NCBI GenBank assembly: GCA_943356485.1 | Contig: CALRFD010000006.1 | Coordinates: 7,450 to 71,449 of the forward strand | Reading direction: 5' to 3' | Origin: Patescibacteria group bacterium | GTDB taxonomy: Bacteria; Patescibacteriota; Microgenomatia; Daviesbacterales; UBA10151 | DNA length: 64,000 bases | In this document: positions 1 through 61,497 of the stretch, one piece after another | Layout: each line of letters starts with the position of its first letter | How positions within the stretch are numbered: position 1 is the first letter of the stretch | Notes under the pieces: generated by a model | What the model was told of the DNA's origin: nothing | What the model saw: only the letters and a program-made list of their open reading frames with translations | The model's database searches: none | Position numbers and translations under genes: made by a program

Positions 1-1220
1 AATACTTTACCTCAGCTAGAGGAGCTCGTAAAGGAGTTGCAGATAAAGCTTTGAAAACAGCAGATGCAGGATACTTAACTAGACGTTTAGTTGATGTTGC
101 GCATGATGTGATTATCCGAATGGATGATTGTCACACGACAAAAGGGTTGGACTATGATATTTCAAAGAGTAATTTTACCAACGCGAGAGAAAAACTTTTA
201 GGAAGAGTGGCTTTGGAAAATATAACGGAACCAAAAAGCAGGAAAGTTTTAGTTAAGGCAGGAGTGATATTGATAGAAGAACATATCCAGGAAATTTTGA
301 AAAGTGGTGTGCAGGTTGTTATGGCAAGATCTACCTTGACTTGTGAAGCAAAATACGGAATTTGTAAAAGCTGTTATGGCTTTGATTTAACAACCAGAGA
401 GTTAGTCAAGATTGGTACTCCGGTTGGAGTTGTTGCCGCTCAAGCTATCGGTGAGCCTGGTACACAGTTAACCATGCGTACTTTCCATACCGGAGGTATT
501 GTTGGTCTAGACATTACGCAAGGTTTACCAAGAGTAGAAGAGCTATATGAAGCTAGAACTCCAAAAGTCGCATCCCCAATTGCCGAGATCGCTGGAAAAG
601 TTTCCGTATTAGAGACTGAGCTTGGAACCAGAATCAGAGTCAGAACAACTTCAAAGCCACATGAAGAAAGAGAATATGTTATTCCTGCAACTGCTACACT
701 GTTAGTTGAAGAAGGTCAGTTAATAGATGCGGGAACTATTCTCGCATCAGGACATATGGACGTCAAAGAGATCTTGAGAATTCAAGGTTTAAGGGCGGCG
801 CAAAGATATATTGTTGATCAGGTGAGACTTGTTTATGAATCTCAGGGAGTACCGATTAATGAAAAGCATTTTGAAGTTATTGTTAGAAAAATGTCTGACA
901 AGGTTAGGGTTGACTCTCAAGGTGACACCAATCTTTTACCGGGTGAGATTATTGATCAAATCAGGTTTGAAGATGAAAACAAAAGAGTCTTGGCAGGTGG
1001 TGGAGAGCCGGCAACAGCAGAGGTTGTGATATTAGGTATAACTAGGGCATCTTTGCAAACAGAGAGCTTCTTATCATCTGCTTCCTTCCAGGAAACAACT
1101 TCAGTCCTCTCGGATGCGGCGATTTCAGGAAAGTCTGATAGGTTAATTGGTTTGAAGGAAAATGTTATAATCGGCCGACTTATCCCGACTTCAGAAGAGA
1201 GAGCAAGAATAGAAGGGTAA
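1..1220 (+). CDS. rpoC: DNA-directed RNA polymerase subunit beta' (C-terminal part; 5' end outside window, reading frame opens at nt 3)
   Basis: Translation from nt 3 gives ...SARGARKGVADKALKTADAGYLTRRLVDVAHD..., the conserved RpoC C-terminal region; it continues the track ORF 51..1220 upstream to the window edge. Confidence 0.9.
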   Translation, partial: YFTSARGARKGVADKALKTADAGYLTRRLVDVAHDVIIRMDDCHTTKGLDYDISKSNFTNAREKLLGRVALENITEPKSRKVLVKAGVILIEEHIQEILKSGVQVVMARSTLTCEAKYGICKSCYGFDLTTRELVKIGTPVGVVAAQAIGEPGTQLTMRTFHTGGIVGLDITQGLPRVEELYEARTPKVASPIAEIAGKVSVLETELGTRIRVRTTSKPHEEREYVIPATATLLVEEGQLIDAGTILASGHMDVKEILRIQGLRAAQRYIVDQVRLVYESQGVPINEKHFEVIVRKMSDKVRVDSQGDTNLLPGEIIDQIRFEDENKRVLAGGGEPATAEVVILGITRASLQTESFLSSASFQETTSVLSDAAISGKSDRLIGLKENVIIGRLIPTSEERARIEG

Positions 1221-1237
1221 GAAGATAAATACATAAG

Positions 1238-1699
1238 ATGCCAACAATTAATCAATTAGTTAGAAAAGGCAGGAAAACTATCGTTAAAAAGATTAAAGCA
1301 ACTGCGCTAAGACGAAGCTTTAATGTAAAGAATCGAAAGTATACACAAAATTTTAATCCTCAAAAAAGAGGCGTGGTCACCTTGGTAAAAACGATGACTC
1401 CTAAAAAACCTAATTCAGCTCTTAGAAAAGTCGCCAGAGTAAGACTTTCAAATAGAGCTGAGGTTACAGCATATATTCAAGGTGAAGGTCATTCCTTGGC
1501 TGAGCACGGGATTGTTTTAGTTAGAGGAGGAAGAGTAAAAGATTTACCAGGAGTTAAGTATCATTTGATCAGAGGAAAGTTTGACTTAGCAGGTGTACAG
1601 GGAAGGAAAAAAGCCAGATCAATATATGGTACAAAGAAAGGTGGAGGTCTAGCTGCAAAGGTAGCTCCGAAAGCAGCTCCGGCAGTACCAGCTGCATAA
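1238..1699 (+). CDS. rpsL: 30S ribosomal protein S12 with ~25-aa Ala/Lys/Pro-rich C-terminal extension
   Basis: [13 protein letters not shown]... and the conserved PNSALRKV motif; 153 aa versus ~124 typical. Confidence 0.93.
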
Positions 1700-1705
1700 A
1701 ATATT

Positions 1706-2182
1706 ATGAGAAGTAAAAAAGCACCAGATAGAATATTGCCTCTTGATCCGATTTATGGTTCAAGGATACTCTCCCGTTTTATTAACAAAGTCATGAAAGA
1801 TGGTAAAAGATCAACTGCACAAAGTGTAGTTTACAAGGCCATGGAGGCAATTAAAGAGCAAAGTAAACAAGAACCATTAAGTGTTTTTGAAAAAGCTATT
1901 GCCAATGTTGCGCCTAAGATGGAAGTTAGACCCAGAAGAGTTGGAGGAGCTTCATATCAGGTGCCTGTTGAGGTACGCGGAGATAGAAAAGAAGCATTAG
2001 CTATCAGATGGTTAATTTCTGCCGCCAGATCAAGGTCAAATGCAGCATTTCATGGTTTTGATAAAAAATTAGCAGCAGAGCTTATGGATGCTGCAAATAA
2101 TGCCGGATCTGCCATGAAGAAAAAAGAAGATATGCAAAAAACAGCCAATGCTAATCGCGCTTTTGCTCATTTTAGGTGGTAA
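1706..2182 (+). CDS. rpsG: 30S ribosomal protein S7
   Basis: MRSKKAPDRILPLDPIYGS...VMKDGKRSTA... typical S7; canonical position after rpsL. Confidence 0.93.
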   Translation: MRSKKAPDRILPLDPIYGSRILSRFINKVMKDGKRSTAQSVVYKAMEAIKEQSKQEPLSVFEKAIANVAPKMEVRPRRVGGASYQVPVEVRGDRKEALAIRWLISAARSRSNAAFHGFDKKLAAELMDAANNAGSAMKKKEDMQKTANANRAFAHFRW

Positions 2183-2444: not shown

Positions 2445-2474
2445 GACTTTTAGGATCAGATTAATTAAGATTTA
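2445..2474 (+). promoter_or_regulatory. putative sigma70-type promoter (TTGACT-17-TAAGAT)
   Basis: -35 TTGACT, 17-nt spacer, -10 TAAGAT, directly upstream of the hairpin and the greA-NTD-like ORF plus fusA. Confidence 0.35.
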
Positions 2475-2478
2475 CAAA

Positions 2479-2504
2479 GTGACCTCCCAGAGGGGAGGTT
2501 TTTT
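2479..2504 (+). terminator. intrinsic terminator-like hairpin CCTCCC-AGAG-GGGAGG + T6 (possible attenuator in the fusA leader)
   Basis: GC stem followed by a T-run in the AT-rich intergenic region. Confidence 0.5.
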
Positions 2505-2524
2505 ATCGGAGATAAAGATATATT

Positions 2525-2752
2525 ATGATAGACGAAAAGCTGCGACAGGAAAAATTAAAGATGTGGAGAGAGAATCTGAAACAGTTGGAAAAACAACTGC
2601 AGGAGATTCTTATCAAAAAAGGCCAGGCTGCTCAAGAAGGGGATCTTTCAGAAAATGCAGCTTACACTATGGCAATTGAGGATTCAGAAACAGCTAGGGT
2701 TAGGATTGAAGAGATAAAGAAGATCATCCGAGAGTTGGAGGCAGGGAAGTAA
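2525..2752 (+). CDS. GreA/GreB N-terminal coiled-coil domain-only mini-protein (75 aa)
   Basis: ...[34 protein letters not shown] matches the GreA N-terminal finger domain (GDLKENAEYHAAKE...RI.EL); GGAG RBS; stop overlaps the fusA ATG. Confidence 0.45.
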
Positions 2753-16749: not shown

Positions 16750-17081
16750 TGGAAAAATTAAGTAGAGTTAGACGACATAAAACAATAAGAAAGCATCTGA
16801 TTGGTACGAGCGATCGTCCAAGGCTCGCAGTCTTTAGATCTAATCAACATATCTATGCACAGATAATTGATGACAGTCTTGGGAAGACTTTGGTATCAGG
16901 TTCTGATATGAAACAAACAGGGACTAAAAAGCAAAGAGCATATAATTTAGGTAAGAGTTTAGCAGAGAAAGCGCTAAAATCTCAAATCAAAACAATAGTT
17001 TTTGATAGAGGTGGTTTTTTATATCAGGGTAGAATTGCAGAAATTGCCAGAGGTGCCAGAGAAGGAGGGTTATTATTCTAA
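16749..17081 (+). CDS. rplR: 50S ribosomal protein L18
   Basis: ...[20 protein letters not shown]... typical L18. Confidence 0.93.
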
Positions 17082-17581
17082 TGAATATAAATAATCAACG
17101 TGACCAACAATCAGAATATTTTGAAAGGGTGGTTCAGGTTAATCGGGTTTCGAAAAAGACTAAAGGTGGGGATAAAAGATCATTGTCCGTTTTAGTGGTG
17201 GTGGGAGATAGAAAAGGAAAGGTGGGAGTTGGATTAGGTAAAGCCGCAGAAGTGCAATCAGCTGTTCGTAAAGCCACGAGCTATGCTAAAAGGCATATGA
17301 TAGATGTGCCGCTTCGAGGTACAACTATTCCTCATCAGATTTTAGTTAAAAGCGGGGCAGCTATTGTATTGCTTAAGCCCGCTCCTCTTGGAACCGGAGT
17401 CATTGCAGGCGGTGCCGTGAGAGTAGTAGTTGAGGCAGCAGGAATACATGATATTGTTTCTAAATCTCTAGGAACAGAAAACAAAGCCTCAAATGTATAT
17501 GCAACAATGGAGGCTTTATCTAAACTAAAGAAAGTAGTGATAAAGGCTGAAACTGGCGATAAAAAGGATAAGAAAGACTAA
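17081..17581 (+). CDS. rpsE: 30S ribosomal protein S5
   Basis: ...[14 protein letters not shown]... typical S5. Confidence 0.93.
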
Positions 17582-17584
17582 GTT

Positions 17585-18022
17585 ATGAAACTACACACTT
17601 TAATTAAAAGTAAAACAGGTATGAAGAAAAGAGTTGGAAGAGGAATTGGCTCTGGTCTTGGGAAAACTGCCGGAAGGGGGACGAAAGGTCAAAAGGCAAG
17701 AGGTAGCGTTCCAGCTGGATTTACCGGTTCCGGTTTACCTTTGTATAAAAAACTACCTCTAAAAAGAGGTTTGGGAAATACAGTCCTAGCTAAAAAATTA
17801 ATCCCTGTAAATCTCTCAAGTTTGAATGTTTTCAAGGATAAGACTGTAGTGGATATGGATTCTCTGTTAGGTGCAAACATTATTAATAAAAAAGATCTTA
17901 AAAAAGGAGTGAAGATTTTAGGTCATGGTGAACTCAATTCCGCGTTAACTATCAAACTGCCGTCTTCTGCAAGTGCTCGAAAGAAGATAGAAAAGATAGG
18001 CGGAAAGGTTGTAGATGTCTAA
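17585..18022 (+). CDS. rplO: 50S ribosomal protein L15 (no L30 gene between rpsE and rplO)
   Basis: ...[26 protein letters not shown]... typical L15. Confidence 0.92.
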
Positions 18023-25290: not shown

Positions 25291-25391
25291 ACATTAATAA
25301 GTATTTTCCCTATAAACTTTTCAGCAATTTGTGGTAAAATATTAAAGTTATGAAAATTTTAAATAATAATCTTTGGTTTCACTTTGGCTAT

Positions 25392-25482
25392 CCTCTTAAA
25401 AAGGGAGGCGTTTTTGTGGTTTAAGATAATTTTTAATTAAATAATCGATCCACAAGTAACCTCCCAATTGGGAGGTTTTTTT
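25392..25482 (+). promoter_or_regulatory. leader with two tandem SD-like hairpins (CCTCTT-N-GGGAGG-CGTTTTTGTGG and CCTCCC-AATT-GGGAGG-T7-GTGG) upstream of the 25506 ORF
   Basis: Two terminator-like stems whose 3' arms are GGGAGG; TTTGTGG after hairpin 1 can pair with CCACAAG before hairpin 2 (alternative structure). Confidence 0.4.
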
Positions 25483-25505: not shown

Positions 25506-25919
25506 ATGAAAGAAGAAATAAAAAATACAGGAATTGATCTTAGGTCTCAAGTTGCTGTTTTAACTAACAGCCTATTAGAGGCTAATAAAACAAAAGACTT
25601 AAAATTGCAATTAACATCTATGCAAAGTTTGACTGATTTATTGGCAAATACTCCTGGTGCAATAAATGCTTTAAGCCAGCTGCAAGAAAATAGAGATGTC
25701 TTGATAGATAAAAAAGTCTTATTATCACGCAACTCAAGAAAACTAATAAGCAGAGCGGTTGTATTAGGAATTGAGTCGACTGATTTAAAAGCAGAACTGA
25801 CAAATAAGGTAGAGGATGCTAAGAAAAAAGGGAGAGATAGACTAACCCGTGGAGATTTAAAAGATCTTGCTCAGGATGTTAAATCTAGACTAATTCAAAG
25901 GAGGCCTGTCCTTGTCTAA
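25506..25919 (+). CDS. hypothetical protein (~137 aa)
   Basis: GGAGGTG RBS 6 nt upstream of ATG 25506 (track ORF starts at GTG 25497); no recognisable family. Confidence 0.5.
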   Translation: MKEEIKNTGIDLRSQVAVLTNSLLEANKTKDLKLQLTSMQSLTDLLANTPGAINALSQLQENRDVLIDKKVLLSRNSRKLISRAVVLGIESTDLKAELTNKVEDAKKKGRDRLTRGDLKDLAQDVKSRLIQRRPVLV

Positions 25920-27439: not shown

Positions 27440-27596
27440 GTAAACATATGGTTTACTAGTACTGCATTAAGAGTGCCGCTTAAAAAGCGAGCCGGCAACC
27501 GTAAAGTTACGGTGCCAAATCCTTGAGAGAGGAAGATGCGCCCGCCTTTGGCGAGGAAACTTGAAAGCCTCTCTGATGAGAGGTTTTTTTGAATTT
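27440..27596 (+). ncRNA. SAM riboswitch (SAM-I/IV clan) with intrinsic-terminator expression platform
   Basis: Core motifs GAGUGCC ... GCCGGCAACC ... GGUGCCAAAUCC, then antiterminator GAGAGAGG, terminator CCTCTC-TGATG-AGAGG-T7 and the metK ATG. Confidence 0.7.
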
Positions 27597-55155: not shown

Positions 55156-56805
55156 ATGAAATGGAAAGTGGCTCCGAAATCTTCTGATGATATTGTAGAA
55201 CAAATATTAATAAATCGTGGAATAAAAACTTTGGAGGAACGTGAAGACTTTTTTAATCCTAAAATATCCGATTATGAAAAAGATATGCAGATACCAGGAA
55301 TTGAAAAAGCATTAGAAAGAATTAAAAAGGCGATAGAAGAAAAAGAGTTAATAATTGTTTTTGGAGATTATGATGTTGATGGGATCTCTGCCTGTGCAAT
55401 TTTATATAAAAGTTTAACTTCAATTGGAGCAAAGGTGCTACCCTATATTCCACACCGGGAAAAAGAAGGTTATGGTTTATCCAGACAAGGATTGGAATTT
55501 GCCAAAAGTTCCGGGGCACAAGTAGTAATCACTGTAGATAATGGAATTGTAGCAATAGAACAAGCAAAATTTGCAAAAACATTAGGGCTGGATTTAATAA
55601 TAACTGATCATCATCTGCCTTTGGATAAACTACCTGAGGCTTATGCCATAGTTCATTCTACCAAAATGTGTGGGGCAGCGGTGGCCTGGTGCTTGATAAA
55701 AGACTCAATAAGTAAAGACCTAGCAAAAGAGCTTCTGCAGTTTGTGGCCATTGCCACAGTTTGTGATTTAATCCCGCTAATTGGTTTAGGAAGAGCGTTT
55801 GTTTTTGAAGGGTTGAAGCTATTAAATAAAACTAAAAATTTAGGGCTAATTGAATTAATAAATGAATCAGGAATAAAAGGAGAGATCGGCTCCTTTGAGA
55901 TAGGGTATATATTAGGACCAAGATTAAATGCGATTGGCAGACTAGAGCATGCCATTGATGCTTTAAGACTGCTTTGTACAAAAGATTTAACCAAAGCCCG
56001 CAAATTAGCAAAAGTTTTATGTGAGGTCAATATCCAGCGGCAAACTCTAACTAAAACTGCCATAGAGGAAGCGAAATTATTAATTTCCAAAGATAAAAAG
56101 ATACATGTTTTATTCAGTAAGGATTGGGCATCAGGGATAATTGGACTAATTGCCGGCAAAATTGCTGAAGAATATTCTAGGCCGACAATTGCCATATCTG
56201 TTGGAGAAACCTTCTCTAAAGGTTCAGCCAGGTCAGTGGCTGGAGTTAATATTGTGGAGCTGATCAGGGAATTTTCTGATATCTTAGTTGACGTAGGTGG
56301 ACATCCGGGTGCAGCGGGATTTTCTATAGAAACAAAACATCTAGCAGTTTTTAAATCCAGAATAGAAAAAAGCGTTTTATCCCTACCGGATGGGGCAGAA
56401 CAGATTTTGGAAGTAGACGCACTAGTTGACACTAATCAATTAAACAAGAGTCTGGTGGAAAGTTTACAAAAATTTCAACCCTTTGGTTTTAAAAATCCCA
56501 GACCAATACTAATAACATATGGGGTAAGAATTTCAGATATAAAAACAGTGGGTCAAGCCCGCCTGCCAAAGACTGGCACTGTCGGGCAGGGCAAGCATTT
56601 AAAATTTAAAGTTTCCCCTCCTGTCATCCTGAGTGGAGCACAGCGAAGCGAAGGATCTATAGATTGTATTGCTTTTAATATGGGTCAACTGCAGGGTAGT
56701 CTGCAAAAAGCTCATGAGATTGATCTGGCATATACTCCAGAAATTGATAGCTATAATGGTTTTGAAAAACTGCAGTTAAAAATTAAAGATATAAAAATTA
56801 AATAA
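55156..56805 (+). CDS. recJ: single-stranded-DNA-specific exonuclease RecJ; carries an in-frame palindromic insert near the C-terminus
   Basis: DHH motifs (VFGDYDVDGISA, ITDHH) and DHHA1 domain; 549 aa. Confidence 0.88.
   Translation: MKWKVAPKSSDDIVEQILINRGIKTLEEREDFFNPKISDYEKDMQIPGIEKALERIKKAIEEKELIIVFGDYDVDGISACAILYKSLTSIGAKVLPYIPHREKEGYGLSRQGLEFAKSSGAQVVITVDNGIVAIEQAKFAKTLGLDLIITDHHLPLDKLPEAYAIVHSTKMCGAAVAWCLIKDSISKDLAKELLQFVAIATVCDLIPLIGLGRAFVFEGLKLLNKTKNLGLIELINESGIKGEIGSFEIGYILGPRLNAIGRLEHAIDALRLLCTKDLTKARKLAKVLCEVNIQRQTLTKTAIEEAKLLISKDKKIHVLFSKDWASGIIGLIAGKIAEEYSRPTIAISVGETFSKGSARSVAGVNIVELIREFSDILVDVGGHPGAAGFSIETKHLAVFKSRIEKSVLSLPDGAEQILEVDALVDTNQLNKSLVESLQKFQPFGFKNPRPILITYGVRISDIKTVGQARLPKTGTVGQGKHLKFKVSPPVILSGAQRSEGSIDCIAFNMGQLQGSLQKAHEIDLAYTPEIDSYNGFEKLQLKIKDIKIK
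56558..56590. repeat. GC-rich palindromic element family A, short copy (CCCGCCTGCCAAAGACTGGCACTGTCGGGCAGG) in-frame inside recJ
   Basis: 20-mer identical to the map 3' end (20568-20587); stem CCTGCC/GGCAGG; encodes ARLPKTGTVGQ. Confidence 0.7.
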
Positions 56806-56816
56806 TTTGAAATACC

Positions 56817-57179
56817 TCAATATTTTCTACCATTTCTTTGTTTTATTAATTCACGTCTTTTCCTGCTAATTATTGCTTCTACTTCCACCATTAAATCTAC
56901 AACCTCTTCAATTCTTTTCTGTGTTTGGTTTAATGTGTTGGCTAAAGTATTCAAATTAAGGTCTTCTCTAAATATTTCAGGCTGTCCTTCCGGTAGAACA
57001 AAAGACATTATAGTTCCCATTTCCCTTGCTAAATTTAATCTACCTTCCGTATCATCAGGTGCTAACCCTCTTAATATTCCAGTCTCAATCCATTGTTGAG
57101 TATAACTAAAAGGATTCGTTGCTGCTTGTTCAAATCTTTCAACCCAGACTTGCTGATGTGTTTTTACTTCTACTGCCAT
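56817..57179 (-). CDS. hypothetical protein (120 aa)
   Basis: ORF with its own leader hairpin, U7 tract and mini-uORF; no recognisable family. Confidence 0.45.
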   Translation of the reverse strand: MAVEVKTHQQVWVERFEQAATNPFSYTQQWIETGILRGLAPDDTEGRLNLAREMGTIMSFVLPEGQPEIFREDLNLNTLANTLNQTQKRIEEVVDLMVEVEAIISRKRRELIKQRNGRKY

Positions 57180-57356
57180 ATTTATCCGCCCTCTTTCTTA
57201 ATCATAAAAAAACCTCCCTTTAGGGAGGCTTGTCGCTTGGGTAATTTATTTAAAACTACCTGAACAAACCTCCCCTTCGTGAGGTAATAATAATTCCAAT
57301 AATTTGTATTGTCTTTGTTAGCATTTTTCTATAATACTACAAAGATTGTACAAAGT

Positions 57357-57743
57357 CTAGTTTTTTTCTTTCTTGCCTGTTAGTTCTTCTAGTCTTGATT
57401 GCATATGCTGAGATAGACTAGTTGCAATAACCAATGCTTTTTGTTGTAGCGAATTGTTACTGTGATTAACCATCGCTGTTAGATGGTCTGTTAAAAATCT
57501 TGCTTGTTCCGTTGCATAAGATTCTCTAGTTTCAGCATCTGGATCATATACAGATTGATCTGAGATAGTCCTCTCTCCCCCAGCTCTTCTTGCCATAATA
57601 GCAGAGTAAGCACTTTGTCTGGAAAGCCTGGTAACAGTGCGAGCCCCATACGGTTCTATTTGAGCAAGATCTGTCATTAGCCCATGTAAGGCGTCTACTA
57701 TTTGCATAGGTGCAATTTTTGTTTCTGTTGTCATTTTATTCAC
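57357..57743 (-). CDS. hypothetical protein (~125 aa)
   Basis: Likely start is ATG 57734 (MTTETK...), 9 nt after AAGGAGG; the track lists GTG 57743. Confidence 0.45.
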   Translation of the reverse strand: MNKMTTETKIAPMQIVDALHGLMTDLAQIEPYGARTVTRLSRQSAYSAIMARRAGGERTISDQSVYDPDAETRESYATEQARFLTDHLTAMVNHSNNSLQQKALVIATSLSQHMQSRLEELTGKKEKN

Positions 57744-57750
57744 CTCCTTT

Positions 57751-57838
57751 CATATTTTTTCCATAAAAAAACCTCCCATTTCGGGAGGTCTATTCCTTTC
57801 TCTTTTAGATTTTAATTAATCTAAAAAGACCTCCCTAA
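57751..57838 (-). repeat. 88-bp leader element, copy 1 (identical to 58505-58592): terminator/SD-sequestering hairpin + U7 + AUG mini-uORF, with upstream competing GGGAGG
   Basis: Exact 88/88 match. Minus strand reads UUAGGGAGGUCUUUUUAGAUUAAUUAAAAUCUAAAAGAGAAAGGAAUAGACCUCCCGAAAUGGGAGGUUUUUUUAUGG. Confidence 0.85.
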
Positions 57839-57952
57839 CGTTATCCCCCAAAAGGAGACTTTGTGTAAGAAGGCTAAGTAATAAGTTAAAATTTAGTTTT
57901 AAAGTTTTAATCATAAGATTGAATATATATTTAAATCATTTAATTGTCAAGT

Positions 57953-58507
57953 TTAAAAACAAGCAAATTGTCTTTCTAAATCTTTAATACTATTTATTCC
58001 AGGGACAACCCTGGGTTGTTTTCCTGTAGCAATTTGTTTAAAAGAAGATAGTGTTTCAGCTGAAGCTCTAATTAAATCTTGAACTAAAGCATCTGTAGAA
58101 AGTGGGTTACTATCACCATTTTCTCTTAATGCATCAATTACTTGTTCCGGTGTTGCTATTAGGCATGGCAGGTTACTAATACGAAATTTTCCAGAGTATC
58201 TTGCTCTATGATGACCATCAATAATAAATAATTGTATATTTTTGTTAGGAATAGCACAGACTAGAATAGGATTTTCATTCAAGTAGTTTATGCCTTGTTG
58301 AGCTAACCTTCGTTCTACCGAGGATCTTTTGCAACCGTCGTATTCCTCTCTAGTTTGAATTCCAAAAAGATGTATTCTTGGAATTAACAATCTAGGTGTC
58401 TTTGATTCTAAACTTTCTTTTAATTTATTCCCCTCTACGAATTGAAAGCTAGAGCAAGATAGCTGTCGTCTATCAATAATAGGTTTTTCCATTTCTAAAT
58501 AATTCAT
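57953..58507 (-). CDS. ParB/sulfiredoxin-fold (ParB-like nuclease domain) protein
   Basis: ...NPILVCAIPNKNIQLFIIDGHHRARYSGK... has the DGHHR-type motif of the ParB/Srx superfamily; 184 aa. Confidence 0.5.
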   Translation of the reverse strand: MNYLEMEKPIIDRRQLSCSSFQFVEGNKLKESLESKTPRLLIPRIHLFGIQTREEYDGCKRSSVERRLAQQGINYLNENPILVCAIPNKNIQLFIIDGHHRARYSGKFRISNLPCLIATPEQVIDALRENGDSNPLSTDALVQDLIRASAETLSSFKQIATGKQPRVVPGINSIKDLERQFACF

Positions 58508-58592
58508 ATTTTTTCCATAAAAAAACCTCCCATTTCGGGAGGTCTATTCCTTTCTCTTTTAGATTTTAATTAATCTAAAAAGACCTCCCTAA
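58505..58592 (-). repeat. 88-bp leader element, copy 2 (identical to 57751-57838); its uORF MEKI* overlaps the ATG of the ParB-like gene (ATGA)
   Basis: Exact duplicate; upstream promoter-like TTGACT-17-TACAAT at ~58700. Confidence 0.85.
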
Positions 58593-58752
58593 ATAACCAC
58601 CTGAAATGGTGGCCATAATAAGATGGAGGACGTATTTAATATTATTGATTTGATTTACTTTTAACATATATTTAAAAAAACTACAGACCTAAAGTCTATA
58701 GAATATATGAATTGTAATCCTAAATATTATAAAAGTCAAATTTGAAAAATAT

Positions 58753-59922
58753 TTATAGTAAAACTAATCTGCTGCTATGGCTTTTCAATTCATCAATTGC
58801 CTCGCCCTGTTTTAAGTGATTGTTTGTGGCAAAAGATAAATAAAAAGCATATTCGCCTAACATTCCGGTAGCCAAAGAATCTATTGCTATTAAATCTATA
58901 CCTCTTGTATGGAAAGGTTTTATCGCATTTTTTAAACTCCCGACAGTATCTCTTAGTGTAAAAACTACAGTTGTTTTATCCTGGTATTTTGTCCCATTAA
59001 TTACTCCACCTCTAAGCTTTTCTACGATTTCTTCCATGTTTAATTCCCAAGGTATACTTGGTGGTAAATACTGTGCAATTGGATATGAACCAGCAGATCT
59101 AATTCCTACACCCTGTTTATATAATCCGCTTAGAGCTTTTATTAATGGCCGATCCTCCTGATGTCCTAATAAATCCATCCAGATGGTTTCAAAACCTCCA
59201 ACTTCGCCCAGAGACTTTATTCTTGAGAGGTTTATTCCCTCGTCTGTTAAAACTTCAAGAGCTGAAAATAAGCCGCCAGGTCTGTTTGGTATTTGAGCGA
59301 TTAAGGTTGATTTACTTTCTCCTTCATGTGGGTTTGTTTCTCCATTTTGAATACCAACAACTGCAAAGCGGGTAGTATTTAAGGCGTTGTCTTGTTGGTT
59401 ATTTAATTGTTGTAAAATATCGGTCAATTGATTTATAGCTCCTGCCATGCTTGGGCCAACCCCAGCAAGTTTTGGATTTCCTGCTGCTTCCAGGATTGCA
59501 GCTACTGTACTATCTCTATCTTCAAACTTAGCATTAGGAAAGTTTTTATTGGCGTTTTTTCTAACCTGTCCTAGTGCTGTATCTTTGGATGCAACAATTT
59601 CGATTTCTTCCCTAGGGACGCCTTTTTGCCAATAAATACTTTGACTAATTGGATGGTTTATCTCGCGGATGATTCTAAAAGGAATATTTTTAAAAGCAAT
59701 TAAAGCATCATTAACTGCTCCTTCAGTAGAATTTTCTATTGGTACTATTCCCTGTTGAGCTTTTCTCTCGAATACCGCCTGACAAACTAAAGCGATATTG
59801 GAGCATGGAATTAGAGTTGTATTCTTGTATTCAGAGCCGGAGAGCCTTACTCCGGTAGCTACCTCATAGGAGAAGGATCCTTCTGGACTTAAGTATGCTA
59901 ATGTTTCTATTTGTTTATTCAT
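58753..59922 (-). CDS. pheA: prephenate dehydratase-like protein (PDT domain + tandem ACT domains)
   Basis: YLSPEGSFSYEVA..., VPIENSTEGAVND..., ...TTRFAVVG..., ACT region STLIAQIPNRPGGLFSALEVLTDEGINLSRIKS; extra C-terminal ACT-like domain. Confidence 0.7.
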   Translation of the reverse strand: MNKQIETLAYLSPEGSFSYEVATGVRLSGSEYKNTTLIPCSNIALVCQAVFERKAQQGIVPIENSTEGAVNDALIAFKNIPFRIIREINHPISQSIYWQKGVPREEIEIVASKDTALGQVRKNANKNFPNAKFEDRDSTVAAILEAAGNPKLAGVGPSMAGAINQLTDILQQLNNQQDNALNTTRFAVVGIQNGETNPHEGESKSTLIAQIPNRPGGLFSALEVLTDEGINLSRIKSLGEVGGFETIWMDLLGHQEDRPLIKALSGLYKQGVGIRSAGSYPIAQYLPPSIPWELNMEEIVEKLRGGVINGTKYQDKTTVVFTLRDTVGSLKNAIKPFHTRGIDLIAIDSLATGMLGEYAFYLSFATNNHLKQGEAIDELKSHSSRLVLL

Positions 59923-60060
59923 ATATTTTTCTCCCTGTCCGCAACGACTTCGTAAACTCGTCTTGCGTGTCGGGCGGGCATAAAAAAACCTCCGGTATAA
60001 AACGGAGGTAAGTTGATTTTCACAAAAACCAACCTCCGTTTAAACGAAGGTAAAAAAGAA
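59923..60060 (-). promoter_or_regulatory. pheA-like leader: two SD-like hairpins (CCUUCG..CGGAGG; CCUCCG-UUUUAUAC-CGGAGG-U7) then AUG of a 20-codon uORF whose UGA overlaps the pheA AUG
   Basis: Same grammar as the 88-bp element; uORF MPARHARRVYEVVADREKNI*. Confidence 0.45.
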
Positions 60061-60144
60061 ATTAAAGTTTTCTCTTTGGTTTTGCATGTAGGTTAATTTA
60101 TCAAAGATTCTTCATCTTGTCAACTATTATCTTTAGCTGTTATT

Positions 60145-61497
60145 ATGCAATGGATGAAAGATCGGACATTAATTTTAGATTGTAAAAATGAAATTGGAAA
60201 GCAGGTCAATATTTATGGCTTTGTGCAGGTTAGGCGCGACCATGGCAAAATTCAGTTTTTAGATGTTTCAGACAGAACCGGAATTATGCAGGTTGTTTTG
60301 GGTGGGGGGAAGGGGACTGATATCAGGGCGCAAGATGTTGTTAAGATCTTAGGACAGGTTAACAAAAGGCCGGAGCATTTAGTTAATAAAAACATTCCAA
60401 CCGGTGAGATAGAAATTTACTCTGAAGAATTTGAAGTCTTATCAAAAGCTGAAGAGTTGCCTTTCGATATGGGGGGGAAGGATTTAAACCTGCAACTACC
60501 AACCTTATTAGACTTTAGGCCGCTAACTTTAAGACATCCAAAAGTTAAACAGATATTTAAAGTGCAAGAGGCTATTATTGATGGATTTCGAAGAACCTGC
60601 CAAAGTTTAGGTTGTACAGAAATAGTTGTTCCTACAATAGCTGCATCATCTACAGAAGGAGGAGCTGAAGTTTTTAAGTTAGATTACTTTGGTCACAAAG
60701 CCTTTATGACTCAAAGCCCCCAGCTTTACAAACAGATGCTAATTCCTGTATTTGAAAGAGTCTATACAATTTCTCATGCTTATCGTGCAGAGCCGTCTGT
60801 AACAACAAGACACCTGACAGAGGTTACTCAGATGGACTTAGAATTTGGATTTTGCGAATTTCCAGAGTTATTAGATCTTTTAGAAAAAGTTGCAACAGAC
60901 ACTTTGAAATATGCCGAAGATCAAAATGAAAAAGCTCTGAAGGAATTTGGTATAGAAAAAATAGCTTTTGGCTCGCCTCGTGGCGAAGCGGGGAGTATCC
61001 CCAGACTTACTTTAAGGGAAGCACAGGAGTTAATTTTAAAGGAATTTGGGCGGGATAATAGAAAGGAAAAAGATTTAACTCCGCAAGATGAGCTAGATTT
61101 ATGTAAGTGGGCTTTAGAAAAACATAATAGTGATTTTGTAACTGTGACCCACTTTCCTACAAAAGCTAAACCTTTTTATACAAAACCAGATCCAAAAGAT
61201 CCTGAATATTCCTTGAGCTATGATTTGTTATTTAGAGGTGTTGAAGTTTTGAGCGGTAGTCAGAGAATTAATGATTATAAGCAGTTAGTGGAGAGTATTA
61301 AATTAAGAGGTATGGATCCTAAGGAGTTTGAGTTATATCTGATGGCTTTCAAATTCGGAATGCCTCTTGAGGGTGGATTTTCATTTGGGTTGGAAAGATT
61401 AACTATGCATATGTTAAATTTAGCTAATGTTAGAGAAGCAAGTCTTTTTCCAAGAGACATGGAGAGGGTAGATATCAGGTTAAATAAAAGTTCCTAA
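60145..61497 (+). CDS. aspS: class IIb aminoacyl-tRNA synthetase, archaeal-type AspRS/AsnRS (~450 aa)
   Basis: N-terminal OB anticodon-binding domain; class II motifs (FRGVEVLSGSQR, GGFSFGLERL). Confidence 0.8.
   Translation: MQWMKDRTLILDCKNEIGKQVNIYGFVQVRRDHGKIQFLDVSDRTGIMQVVLGGGKGTDIRAQDVVKILGQVNKRPEHLVNKNIPTGEIEIYSEEFEVLSKAEELPFDMGGKDLNLQLPTLLDFRPLTLRHPKVKQIFKVQEAIIDGFRRTCQSLGCTEIVVPTIAASSTEGGAEVFKLDYFGHKAFMTQSPQLYKQMLIPVFERVYTISHAYRAEPSVTTRHLTEVTQMDLEFGFCEFPELLDLLEKVATDTLKYAEDQNEKALKEFGIEKIAFGSPRGEAGSIPRLTLREAQELILKEFGRDNRKEKDLTPQDELDLCKWALEKHNSDFVTVTHFPTKAKPFYTKPDPKDPEYSLSYDLLFRGVEVLSGSQRINDYKQLVESIKLRGMDPKEFELYLMAFKFGMPLEGGFSFGLERLTMHMLNLANVREASLFPRDMERVDIRLNKSS

Follow-up and report, generated by a model that had tools for sequence, protein, structure and literature searches.

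The window analysed here is a stretch of 64,000 nucleotides (nt) from contig CALRFD010000006.1 of a Patescibacteria group bacterium. It carries four co-oriented genes on the minus strand, read from 60160 to 56800, which code in that order for a pheA-like protein of 389 amino acids (aa; 58753..59922), a 184-aa protein with a DGHHR motif (57953..58507), a 125-aa protein (57357..57734) and a 120-aa protein (56817..57179). Each gene has its own promoter-like hexamers and its own hairpin followed by seven U residues (U7). The leaders of the four genes are referred to as L1 to L4 in this order, and a fifth leader, at 25350 on the plus strand, as L5; three-digit labels such as L002 or L063 denote loci of relatives or metagenomic contigs and not leaders of the window. 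The G+C content of the region, 34.9%, was inside the spread of 3.3-kb windows of the same stretch (36.2 +/- 2.3%). The genes aspS (plus) and pheA-like (minus) are divergent, and this aspS-pheA synteny was kept in relatives. Defence and phage libraries gave no informative match for the unknown proteins, the sole match being a PHROG of unknown function on the pheA-like protein. An earlier note on this DNA had proposed an accessory or stress-related island, and these observations did not bear that out.

Putative leader peptides and alternative RNA structures

All sequence elements that the earlier note had described in the four leaders were located, i.e., separate promoter-like hexamers for each gene, the sequence CCUCC(C/G)-loop-(G/C)GGAGG-U7-AUG, an upstream GGAGG segment in each leader able to pair with the CCUCC arm, and short open reading frames (ORFs) after the U-tract. 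The hairpins with U7 were found at 60009-59982, 58545-58519, 57791-57765 and 57231-57206 in L1 to L4, respectively, the CCUCC(C/G)-loop-(G/C)GGAGG-U7 sequence itself spanning 60008-59982, 58542-58519, 57788-57765 and 57228-57206, and at sequence level they are terminators, with stems of 7-10 pairs including five G-C pairs, followed by U7. Terminator-like sites in the region numbered 16 against 5.2 +/- 2.2 in shuffles, approximately a threefold excess. Promoter-like sites also numbered 16, where 22 were expected; since their count was not enriched, the support for the window promoters comes from their position and from conservation in relatives.

A short ORF absent from the list of the earlier note lies upstream of every hairpin-U7, and in L1, L3 and L4 it opens with an ATG 6-7 nt past the -10 hexamer. 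The L1 promoter, TTGACA-17-TAAATT (60095..60123, minus strand, as for all features of L1 to L4), ends 7 nt before the ATG of an ORF at 60040..60087, and its hexamers and spacing were repeated in L002 and L003. The encoded peptide, MQNQRENFNFFFTFV (peptides are given up to their stop codon), is a putative Phe sensor without a Shine-Dalgarno (SD) sequence and is probably leaderless; its Phe run, FNFFFTF, was reached in 0 of 5000 dinucleotide-preserving shuffles of its own region. The L3 promoter, TTGACA-17-TATATT (57922..57950), likewise ends 7 nt before the leader ATG, and the ORF at 57816..57914 codes for the putative Leu sensor MIKTLKLNFNLLLSLLTQSLLLGDNVREVFLD, whose Leu run (LLLSLLTQSLLL) was reached in 16 of 5000 shuffles. 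The L4 promoter, TAGACT-17-TATTAT (57331..57359), ends 6 nt before the ATG of an ORF at 57256..57324, the putative Ile sensor MLTKTIQIIGIIITSRRGGLFR with the run IQIIGIII (0 of 5000 shuffles). The L2 promoter-like site, TTGACT-17-TACAAT (58739-58711), is followed by an additional hairpin with U7 at 58701-58681 (58674..58739 including the promoter), 6 nt before the leader ATG, which probably doubles as the terminator of the pheA-like gene; the arrangement of hairpin, U-run, AAAGAU and AUG, downstream of a promoter-like site, recurs before L2-type ORFs in L002, L050 and L063. The L2 ORF itself (58575..58667) codes for MLKVNQINNIKYVLHLIMATISGGYLGRSF, a mixed Leu/Ile/Val/Met/Thr and thus multivalent peptide kept in the same three loci, with IKYVLHLIMATIS as its stall-competent codons.

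The spacing found in L1, L3 and L4 was common. A promoter scoring at least 8 of 12, with the -10 hexamer ending 6-13 nt before the ATG (mode 6-7), was found in 27 of 35 leaders, while only one of 35 had an SD-like motif within the 16 nt that precede the leader ATG. Since the -10 hexamer ends 6-7 nt before the ATG and the SD is missing, the sensor ORFs of L1, L3 and L4 are probably translated leaderless or nearly so. The earlier note had also suggested that the same arrangement is used elsewhere in the genome, and a fifth attenuator of the same design indeed lies at 25350..25482 on the plus strand, with an aromatic peptide, MKILNNNLWFHFGYPLKKGGVFVV, and a terminator at 25460-25482, before the gene of a 137-aa protein (25506-25919) that had no family match. 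Its peptide reached no single-residue significance in shuffles; a resembling peptide, MKRFSNNFWFYYYPLKEG, is present in L057. The fifth attenuator also has a GUG mini-ORF and the SD AAGGAGGUG.

Each leader contains four segments, a CCUCC-like segment 1, a GGAGG segment 2, a CCUCC segment 3 and a GGAGG segment 4 followed by U7, for which two folds are possible, one with a 1:2 hairpin and a 3:4 terminator and one with a 2:3 antiterminator. Over the five leaders predicted energies ranged from -5.7 to -21.1 kcal/mol for 1:2, from -16.9 to -27.1 for 2:3 and from -10.9 to -13.5 for 3:4. In L1 (59982..60051) the 1:2 hairpin spans 60051-60032 (-9.6 kcal/mol, with the UAA stop in the loop) and the 2:3 helix about 60041-60000 (-16.9), the terminator having -10.9. 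The corresponding values were about 58632-58580 (-21.1), about 58591-58536 (-22.1) and -13.5 in L2 (58519..58632), about 57876-57827 (-18.4), about 57837-57782 (-22.1) and -13.5 in L3 (57765..57876), and about 57286-57267 (-6.3), about 57277-57222 (-27.1) and -12.7 in L4 (57206..57286). With segment 4 withheld, 2:3 was the minimum-energy fold in all five leaders. When folding was repeated with a ribosome masking part of the leader, L3 gave the antiterminator solely with the A site on LLSL.QSLL (codons 12-15 and 17-21) and L2 solely with the A site on LHLIMATI. L2 and L3 share a repeat of 90 nt, 100% identical (57749-57838 and 58503-58592), which covers segments 2-4, U7 and AUGGAAAAAAUAUGAA and suggests recent gene conversion between both leaders. 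In the relative L063 the two equivalent platforms differ from each other.

From these elements the following scheme can be proposed. Transcription would start at the sigma-70-type promoter, and in L1, L3 and L4 the leader ORF would be translated from a leaderless or near-leaderless 5' end, over a cluster of codons for Phe (L1), Leu (L3) or Ile (L4), or in L2 for a branched-chain/hydrophobic mix, placed just before and over segment 1. With ample charged tRNA the ribosome would pass segment 1 and move onto segment 2 or the stop codon, the 3:4 terminator would form and transcription would end; without any ribosome, 1:2 would form first and then 3:4, again giving termination. With charged tRNA scarce, the ribosome would stall, covering segment 1 and not segment 2, the stronger 2:3 helix would form before segment 4, and read-through would follow. 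In a second layer, GGAGG of segment 4 and U7 would act as SD and spacer for the AUG, exposed in 2:3 transcripts and hidden in leaky 3:4 ones, and the mini-ORF opened there, which ends on or beside the main start (AUGA) or is followed by a second SD, would hand ribosomes to the gene. We consider it very likely that each of the four genes stands in this way behind its own ribosome-mediated (leader-peptide) transcription attenuator.

Predicted stall positions, covariation and conservation

With a masking ribosome, equilibrium folding switched as expected in L2 and L3 but not in L1, L4 and L5, where the 1:4 pairing is the confounder. A geometric test was therefore used instead, which asked, for the 33 of 38 leaders with a 2:3 helix found by script, at which codons a ribosome (A site + 13 nt) would stall on segment 1 without reaching segment 2. 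The stall-competent codons were mostly those of the residue in which the peptide is rich. Phe accounted for 18 of 25 in the Phe type and Ile for nine of ten in the Ile type. Leu held 55 positions in the Leu type, with Ser second at 11; F/Y/W/H held 21 positions in the aromatic type, the other listed residue being one Gly; and I/L/V held 31 positions in the L2 type, with K and M next at four each. The leader stop codon sits beside or past segment 2 in every leader, so that an unstalled ribosome would occlude segment 2.

Nine Leu- and L2-type leaders were aligned for covariation. The 2:3 helix was 96% paired, with two compensatory positions (G-C to A-U and U-A to C-G), and the terminator was 97.5% paired; the covariation scores were reached by 0-1 of 500 shuffles and lay above all slid controls. 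In the Leu-type leader of L063, GGGAGG/CCUCCC/GGGAGG of segments 2, 3 and 4 is replaced by GCGGGG/CCCCGC/GCGGGG.

The pheA-like protein falls into a small clade (about 16 proteins of about 388 aa), and the best-named relatives were Roizmanbacteria and Levybacteria. Scanning the genome collection with a profile of this clade yielded three distant loci, and closer relatives came from look-ups of exact proteins. The attenuator was found upstream of pheA-like homologs at 75% (L002), 47% (L003, L004), 34% (L005, L006) and 31% identity (L007), and promoter, ATG 7-10 nt past the -10 hexamer, Phe-rich peptide, 1:2 hairpin and terminator-U7-AUG/GUG recurred at all six loci. The Phe-rich peptides of this set are MQNQRGNFNFFFTFA, MENRQELAFGFFFTFA, MQKQIRKSFRFFFFTFA, MKNLIKTNAFYFTFAKRG, MKNLTKINAFFFAFA and MIKGLNFGFYFTHPTGR. 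The end of the L1 peptide was kept as FFFTF(A/V) in L002, L003, L004, L044 and L050 and as FFFAFA in L006. Synonymous changes (TTT/TTC and CTT/CTA/CTC) retain Phe and Leu among relatives. Peptides homologous to that of L3, containing LLSLLLGLLLVGA, were found in L018, L019, L036, L050, L062 and L063, and homologs of the L4 peptide in L018 (MNRNIAQIIEIIISSSEGGYLG) and L019 (MQKQIAQIIKIIITSKKGGLS).

A metagenome scan with GGAGGTTTTTTTATGGARAAAAT gave 52 loci, approximately half of them with the complete architecture and with peptides of Phe, Leu, Ile, Ile/Val, Leu/Val, Ile/Thr and aromatic types. Where the controlled gene could be named it fitted the amino acid sensed, namely prephenate dehydratase behind L1 and, in related loci, acetolactate synthase, 3-deoxy-D-arabino-heptulosonate 7-phosphate (DAHP) synthase and pheST. 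Thus an Ile/Val peptide precedes a thiamine pyrophosphate enzyme of the acetolactate-synthase type (L056), an F/W/Y peptide precedes DAHP synthase in a related metagenomic contig, and Y/W/H peptides precede a class I/II aminotransferase and a HAD hydrolase in related loci. In the Levybacteria relative L005 (6135-12946) the order is infC, rplT, a 123-aa gene behind an aromatic leader, the pheA-like gene behind a Phe leader, pheS and pheT, which places the pheA-like gene inside the classical rplT-pheST neighbourhood under a Phe attenuator.

The order of attenuators, mixed, then Leu, then Ile, recurs in L018, L019, L050, L062 and L063, and the proteins downstream are unrelated. Among all downstream proteins BLAST links were confined to the PheA set and the ParB-like set, i.e., the family of the 184-aa protein, and hidden Markov models of the 120-aa and ParB-like families found no further members behind equivalent attenuators elsewhere, so that the cargo genes are not conserved. 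The order Phe, mixed, Leu, Ile is kept while the cargo is swapped, and the sensor cassettes may thus be reusable modules that come to stand before new genes. The earlier note had named conservation of the gene set and of the small ORFs as its check; what persists in relatives is the hairpin-U7-AUG arrangement with its start codon and the attenuator types, and neither mini-ORF length nor cargo genes. Lack of that arrangement in relatives had been given as a refuting condition, and its outcome favours the observation.

Post-terminator start codons and competing explanations

The starts directly after the U-tract open short ORFs in all four leaders. The L1 mini-ORF (59919..59981), MPARHARRVYEVVADREKNI, begins with AUG 7 nt past the GGAGG arm, and its stop overlaps the start of the pheA-like gene (AUAUGA); its length is not kept, being MEKNI in L002, and in L004 the start is GUG. 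In L2 the mini-ORF is AUG GAA AAA AUA UGA (58504..58518), coding for MEKI, with a stop overlapping the main start. L3 has two (57736..57764), MEKI and MKGGE, of which the second contains the canonical SD of the main gene, AAGGAGGUG, and L4 has MIKKEGG (57182..57205). Of 28 terminators that were not selected for a start codon, 23 had ATG or GTG 0-1 nt past the U-run and another had TTG at +1 (24 of 28); those lacking an adjoining start codon include the metK and 2483 hairpins. The start is followed by 2-20 codons, often AUG-GAR-AAA-AUA-UGA overlapping the main AUG; a second canonical SD comes after the mini-ORF in L3 and L4, and at some loci the post-U7 AUG is the start of the main ORF. It is plausible that GGAGG of the terminator 3' arm and U7 form a conserved SD-spacer-start unit, and the mini-ORF is more likely a translational gate that hands ribosomes over by reinitiation. 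Joining of mini-ORF and main ORF by a programmed -1 frameshift at the A-run in AUGGAAAAAAUAUGA was also considered and was rejected, as the length of the A-run varies (2-6 A) and the main ORF always has its own AUG, usually overlapped by the stop.

GGAGG-N7-AUG is an ideal SD geometry, 7-8 nt being the commonest spacing among window genes with an SD, and at several metagenomic loci the main ORF begins right at the post-hairpin AUG. Both would suit a purely translational switch, in which the hairpin hides the SD, U7 is a mere spacer and no transcription is terminated. We regard such a switch as improbable, because a G+C-rich stem of 7-10 pairs with uninterrupted U7-8 is a canonical intrinsic terminator, in 28 of 28 the spacer between GGAGG arm and start consists of U alone, more than a spacer role would demand, and the metK leader has a hairpin-U7 without a following AUG. 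The termination layer and the translational layer can coexist, and a model with both is favoured over the purely translational one.

Antitermination by a ligand, tRNA or RNA-binding protein (riboswitch, T-box, TRAP/PyrR-like), with the leader ORFs incidental, is a poor candidate. The 2:3 region of L2 and L3 does contain an inner hairpin (UCUUUUUAGAUUAAUUAAAAUCUAAAAGA) that is conserved and might in theory be a binding site for a factor, but no aptamer-sized core is common to all leader types, and the types differ by peptide composition, which tracks the downstream enzyme in related loci. Searching 56700-60200 against Rfam gave no riboswitch or T-box family even at E <= 10, and the sole recurring match was a sub-threshold Phe_leader.

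It is very unlikely that the hairpins are plain terminators of upstream genes, leaving four constitutive units and small ORFs that are chance products of AT-rich DNA. Such a reading is helped by the co-orientation of the genes, by the fact that L3 and L4 follow the ParB-like gene and the 125-aa gene, respectively, with no further terminator in between, and by a CCUCCC-GGGAGG-U6 hairpin at 2483-2504 that has no leader ORF. Against it, the L1 hairpin lies downstream of its promoter between the divergent aspS and pheA-like genes, where there is no upstream gene to terminate; a hairpin-U7 of its own, at 58701-58681, follows the pheA-like gene; and the 2:3 helix covaries, and biased peptides, placed where stalling is predicted, are kept at PheA identities as low as 31%. 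Since separate terminators are missing before L3 and L4, the attenuator terminators there probably also stop read-through from upstream.

The earlier note had seen in the leaders a possibly translation-coupled attenuation design, general in this genome. Attenuators involving translation are indeed what the leaders point to, and they recur in the genome and in relatives; the ORFs named as the coupled element were the wrong ones. The post-U7 start is strongly conserved (24 of 28, with TTG counted) and has GGAGG 7 nt before it, which speaks for those ORFs (MEKI, MIKKEGG and the 20-codon ORF), but it is hardly credible that they act as sensors setting termination, as they begin past the U-tract and their codons are made only after the termination decision, run over 2-20 codons of varying sequence, sometimes are the main start itself and lack amino-acid bias. 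The ORFs that would do the sensing are those further upstream, which overlap with segment 1 and show a bias towards Phe, Leu, Ile or branched-chain codons.

There are several points that weigh against ribosome-mediated attenuation at the four genes. Firstly, every dynamic step, from the transcription start sites and translation of the leader ORFs to actual termination or read-through and the role of the mini-ORFs, is inferred from sequence; the elements, alternative pairings, geometry, conservation, covariation and the match of peptide and enzyme in related loci are what the analysis showed. Secondly, in L2 no single-residue run was significant (reached in 949 of 5000 shuffles), and the leader ATG, which has neither an SD nor a leaderless start, lies about 40 nt past the predicted promoter and after a hairpin-U7. 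Thirdly, the minimum-energy fold of full-length L1, L4 and L5 is 2:3 nested in 1:4 and not 1:2 plus 3:4, so that default termination in these leaders would depend on the order of co-transcriptional folding, with 1:2 first, as it does in classical attenuators. The covariation alignment of nine sequences is small, and of 67 crude gene starts in the window just 22 had an SD-like motif, so that GGAGG-U7-AUG is no more than plausible as SD and start. Finally, three of the four cargo genes had no demonstrable link to the amino acid sensed.

Genes behind the leaders and relation to known attenuators

The pheA-like identity given in the earlier note was solid. The protein has a prephenate dehydratase domain (PF00800, 121.5 bits), an ACT domain (PF01842, 37 bits) and a second, C-terminal ACT-like domain, residues 314-384 matching the regulatory domain of Phe hydroxylase (E = 1.3e-8). 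The motif T184-R185-F186 was invariant across the 15-member clade, and against the NCBIfam equivalog PRK11898 the protein scored 187.5 with a cut-off of 219, i.e., below equivalog level. The label ParB/Srx-like for the 184-aa protein held less well. The DGHHR motif is present and invariant in its very small family (five members among 5.8 billion proteins), and a ParB/Srx fold is possible, but profile matches were weak: ParBc_2 gave 13.9 bits against a cut-off of 23.6 (E = 0.062), and SerK gave E = 0.017 over residues 78-117. The family profile had no match in PDB, and the AlphaFold2 model had a predicted local distance difference test (pLDDT) score of 57, at which a fold search is meaningless. 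DGHHR homologs carry L2-type or Ile/Val leaders. In L060 (6960-11447) the gene is again next to prephenate dehydratase, in an apparent operon of a 584-aa protein, an M20 peptidase, DGHHR and prephenate dehydratase behind a VVLIIDLL peptide. That leader has the peptide MRSYSVVLIIDLLTASSGRSSCR and a G+C-rich terminator, CCCGCC..GGCGGG-U6, so the CCUCC/GGAGG composition is not essential to the design. A second leader in L060, of aromatic type (MKISMTRFYCAWHFTASLRCAV), precedes a 350-aa protein.

The 125-aa protein under the Leu attenuator is an orphan, with no homolog found and no match in family, defence or phage libraries. The 120-aa protein under the Ile attenuator is predicted to be all-helical with a mean pLDDT of 91.3 (AlphaFold2) and belongs to a family of about 12 members; its model had no significant neighbour in PDB (best E = 0.08, template modelling score about 0.3). 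The gene calls of two homologs, P0132 and P0137, begin with GGFFVFM and RGIFFGM, which is translated GGAGG-U7 terminator, so automatic gene calling runs through attenuators. If the attenuators act as proposed, these genes would gain a physiological label, Leu limitation inducing the 125-aa orphan, Ile limitation the 120-aa protein and limitation for branched-chain amino acids the DGHHR protein.

The closest known parallels are the attenuators of the pheA leader (pheL) and the pheST leader (pheM) of E. coli, which likewise have a Phe-rich peptide and a four-segment RNA (1:2 and 3:4 versus 2:3); the gene behind L1, like pheA, codes for a prephenate dehydratase. E. coli PheL ends in FFFTFP, which the FFFTF of the L1 type resembles, and pheM sits in the thrS-infC-rpmI-rplT-pheST cluster, where the Levybacteria attenuator, between rplT and the pheA-like gene, pheS and pheT, has the same position. 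Unlike in E. coli, the leader ORF here has no SD and starts 6-8 nt past the -10 hexamer, all paired segments are CCUCC/GGAGG, and the 3' arm of the terminator doubles as the predicted SD for a start directly after the U-tract. With the Rfam family Phe_leader (RF01859), whose gathering threshold is 55 bits, L1 to L4 scored 20.4-28.9 bits and L5 25.4 bits, so they are not sequence members, and at gathering thresholds only a tRNA was found in the whole window.

In the leu, ilvGMEDA and ilvBN attenuators of Proteobacteria and in ilvBNC of Corynebacterium (PMC11857589), Leu/Ile runs or a Leu/Ile/Val mix lie over segment 1. The same switch with a peptide over segment 1 is seen here, and in L056 the design stands before acetolactate synthase, whereas the Leu, Ile and mixed types of the window control the 125-aa orphan, the 120-aa helical and the DGHHR proteins and not biosynthetic enzymes. 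Leaderless leader peptides have been mapped for attenuators of Deinococcus deserti (PMC4007540), and leaderless polycysteine small ORFs are reported from mycobacteria (bioRxiv 10.1101/834739). The sensing ORF described here is likewise at or next to the predicted transcription start and without SD, but in a lineage like those of the Candidate Phyla Radiation (CPR), with the leaderless status read from promoter-ATG spacing. Short leader genes adjoining the starts of structural genes, with proposed ribosome reinitiation, were described by Korolev et al. (2016; PMC4833913); here too the mini-ORF stops at the main start or a few nt from it (AUGA), a geometry proposed to favour reinitiation, whereas its predicted SD is the terminator 3' arm, so that loading of ribosomes would depend on the conformation of the attenuator, a link not described there. 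Our literature search, incomplete in coverage, found no description of leader-peptide attenuators in CPR/Patescibacteria or for these genes. The mechanism, ribosome-mediated attenuation, is a known one, here in a variant whose sensor ORF is mostly leaderless and whose terminator contains a predicted SD; its distinguishing points are the probable leaderless sensor (known elsewhere), the terminator arm as SD and the tandem use before uncharacterised genes in a CPR-like genome.

The lineage is also reflected in the ribosomal protein genes at 17081-18022 (plus strand), where S5 is followed by L15 after 3 nt, without an L30 gene. This order is a hallmark of CPR, and the arrangement is consistent with a CPR genome. 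It is tempting to speculate, and we do so tentatively, that in reduced genomes of this kind tandem attenuator arrays are the main read-out of charged-tRNA pools, driving both the few biosynthetic enzymes left and a changing set of lineage-specific small proteins through reusable sensor cassettes that bring their own SD and start. If true, the cargo could include regulators, enzymes of salvage such as M20 peptidases, or factors for interaction with a host. Attenuation of the type described by Yanofsky, best known from Proteobacteria and Actinobacteria, is very probably used repeatedly in this uncultured lineage with reduced genomes, in a compact design where one GGAGG arm serves as half of a terminator and as ribosome-binding site. 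Leader peptides offer a handle to search metagenomes for amino-acid-responsive regulons, and a caution for gene callers that sometimes translate through terminators.

Three further leaders deserve mention. In L011 (about 600-2050, plus strand) a leader of the Ile/Thr type (MRQTNFAIITIITS) stands before the gene of a 404-aa protein that matches HD_4 weakly (RelA/SpoT-type hydrolase; 24.3 bits against a cut-off of 27.2). In the window, the metK leader (27459-27590, plus strand), for which the earlier note had claimed a SAM riboswitch with a terminator of the same kind, has the terminator, CCUCUC-loop-GAGAGG-U7 (27568-27590), preceded by a SAM-I/IV match that is sub-threshold (31.6 bits against a gathering threshold of 41.1, E = 0.015); it may be a divergent SAM riboswitch missed by curated thresholds. 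At 2455-2752 (plus strand) the hairpin CCUCCC-AGAG-GGGAGG-U6 lies about 10 nt past a TTGACT promoter-like site, and the gene behind it, between rpsG and fusA, codes for a 75-aa protein consisting of the GreA/GreB N-terminal domain only (PF03449, E = 4.7e-8).

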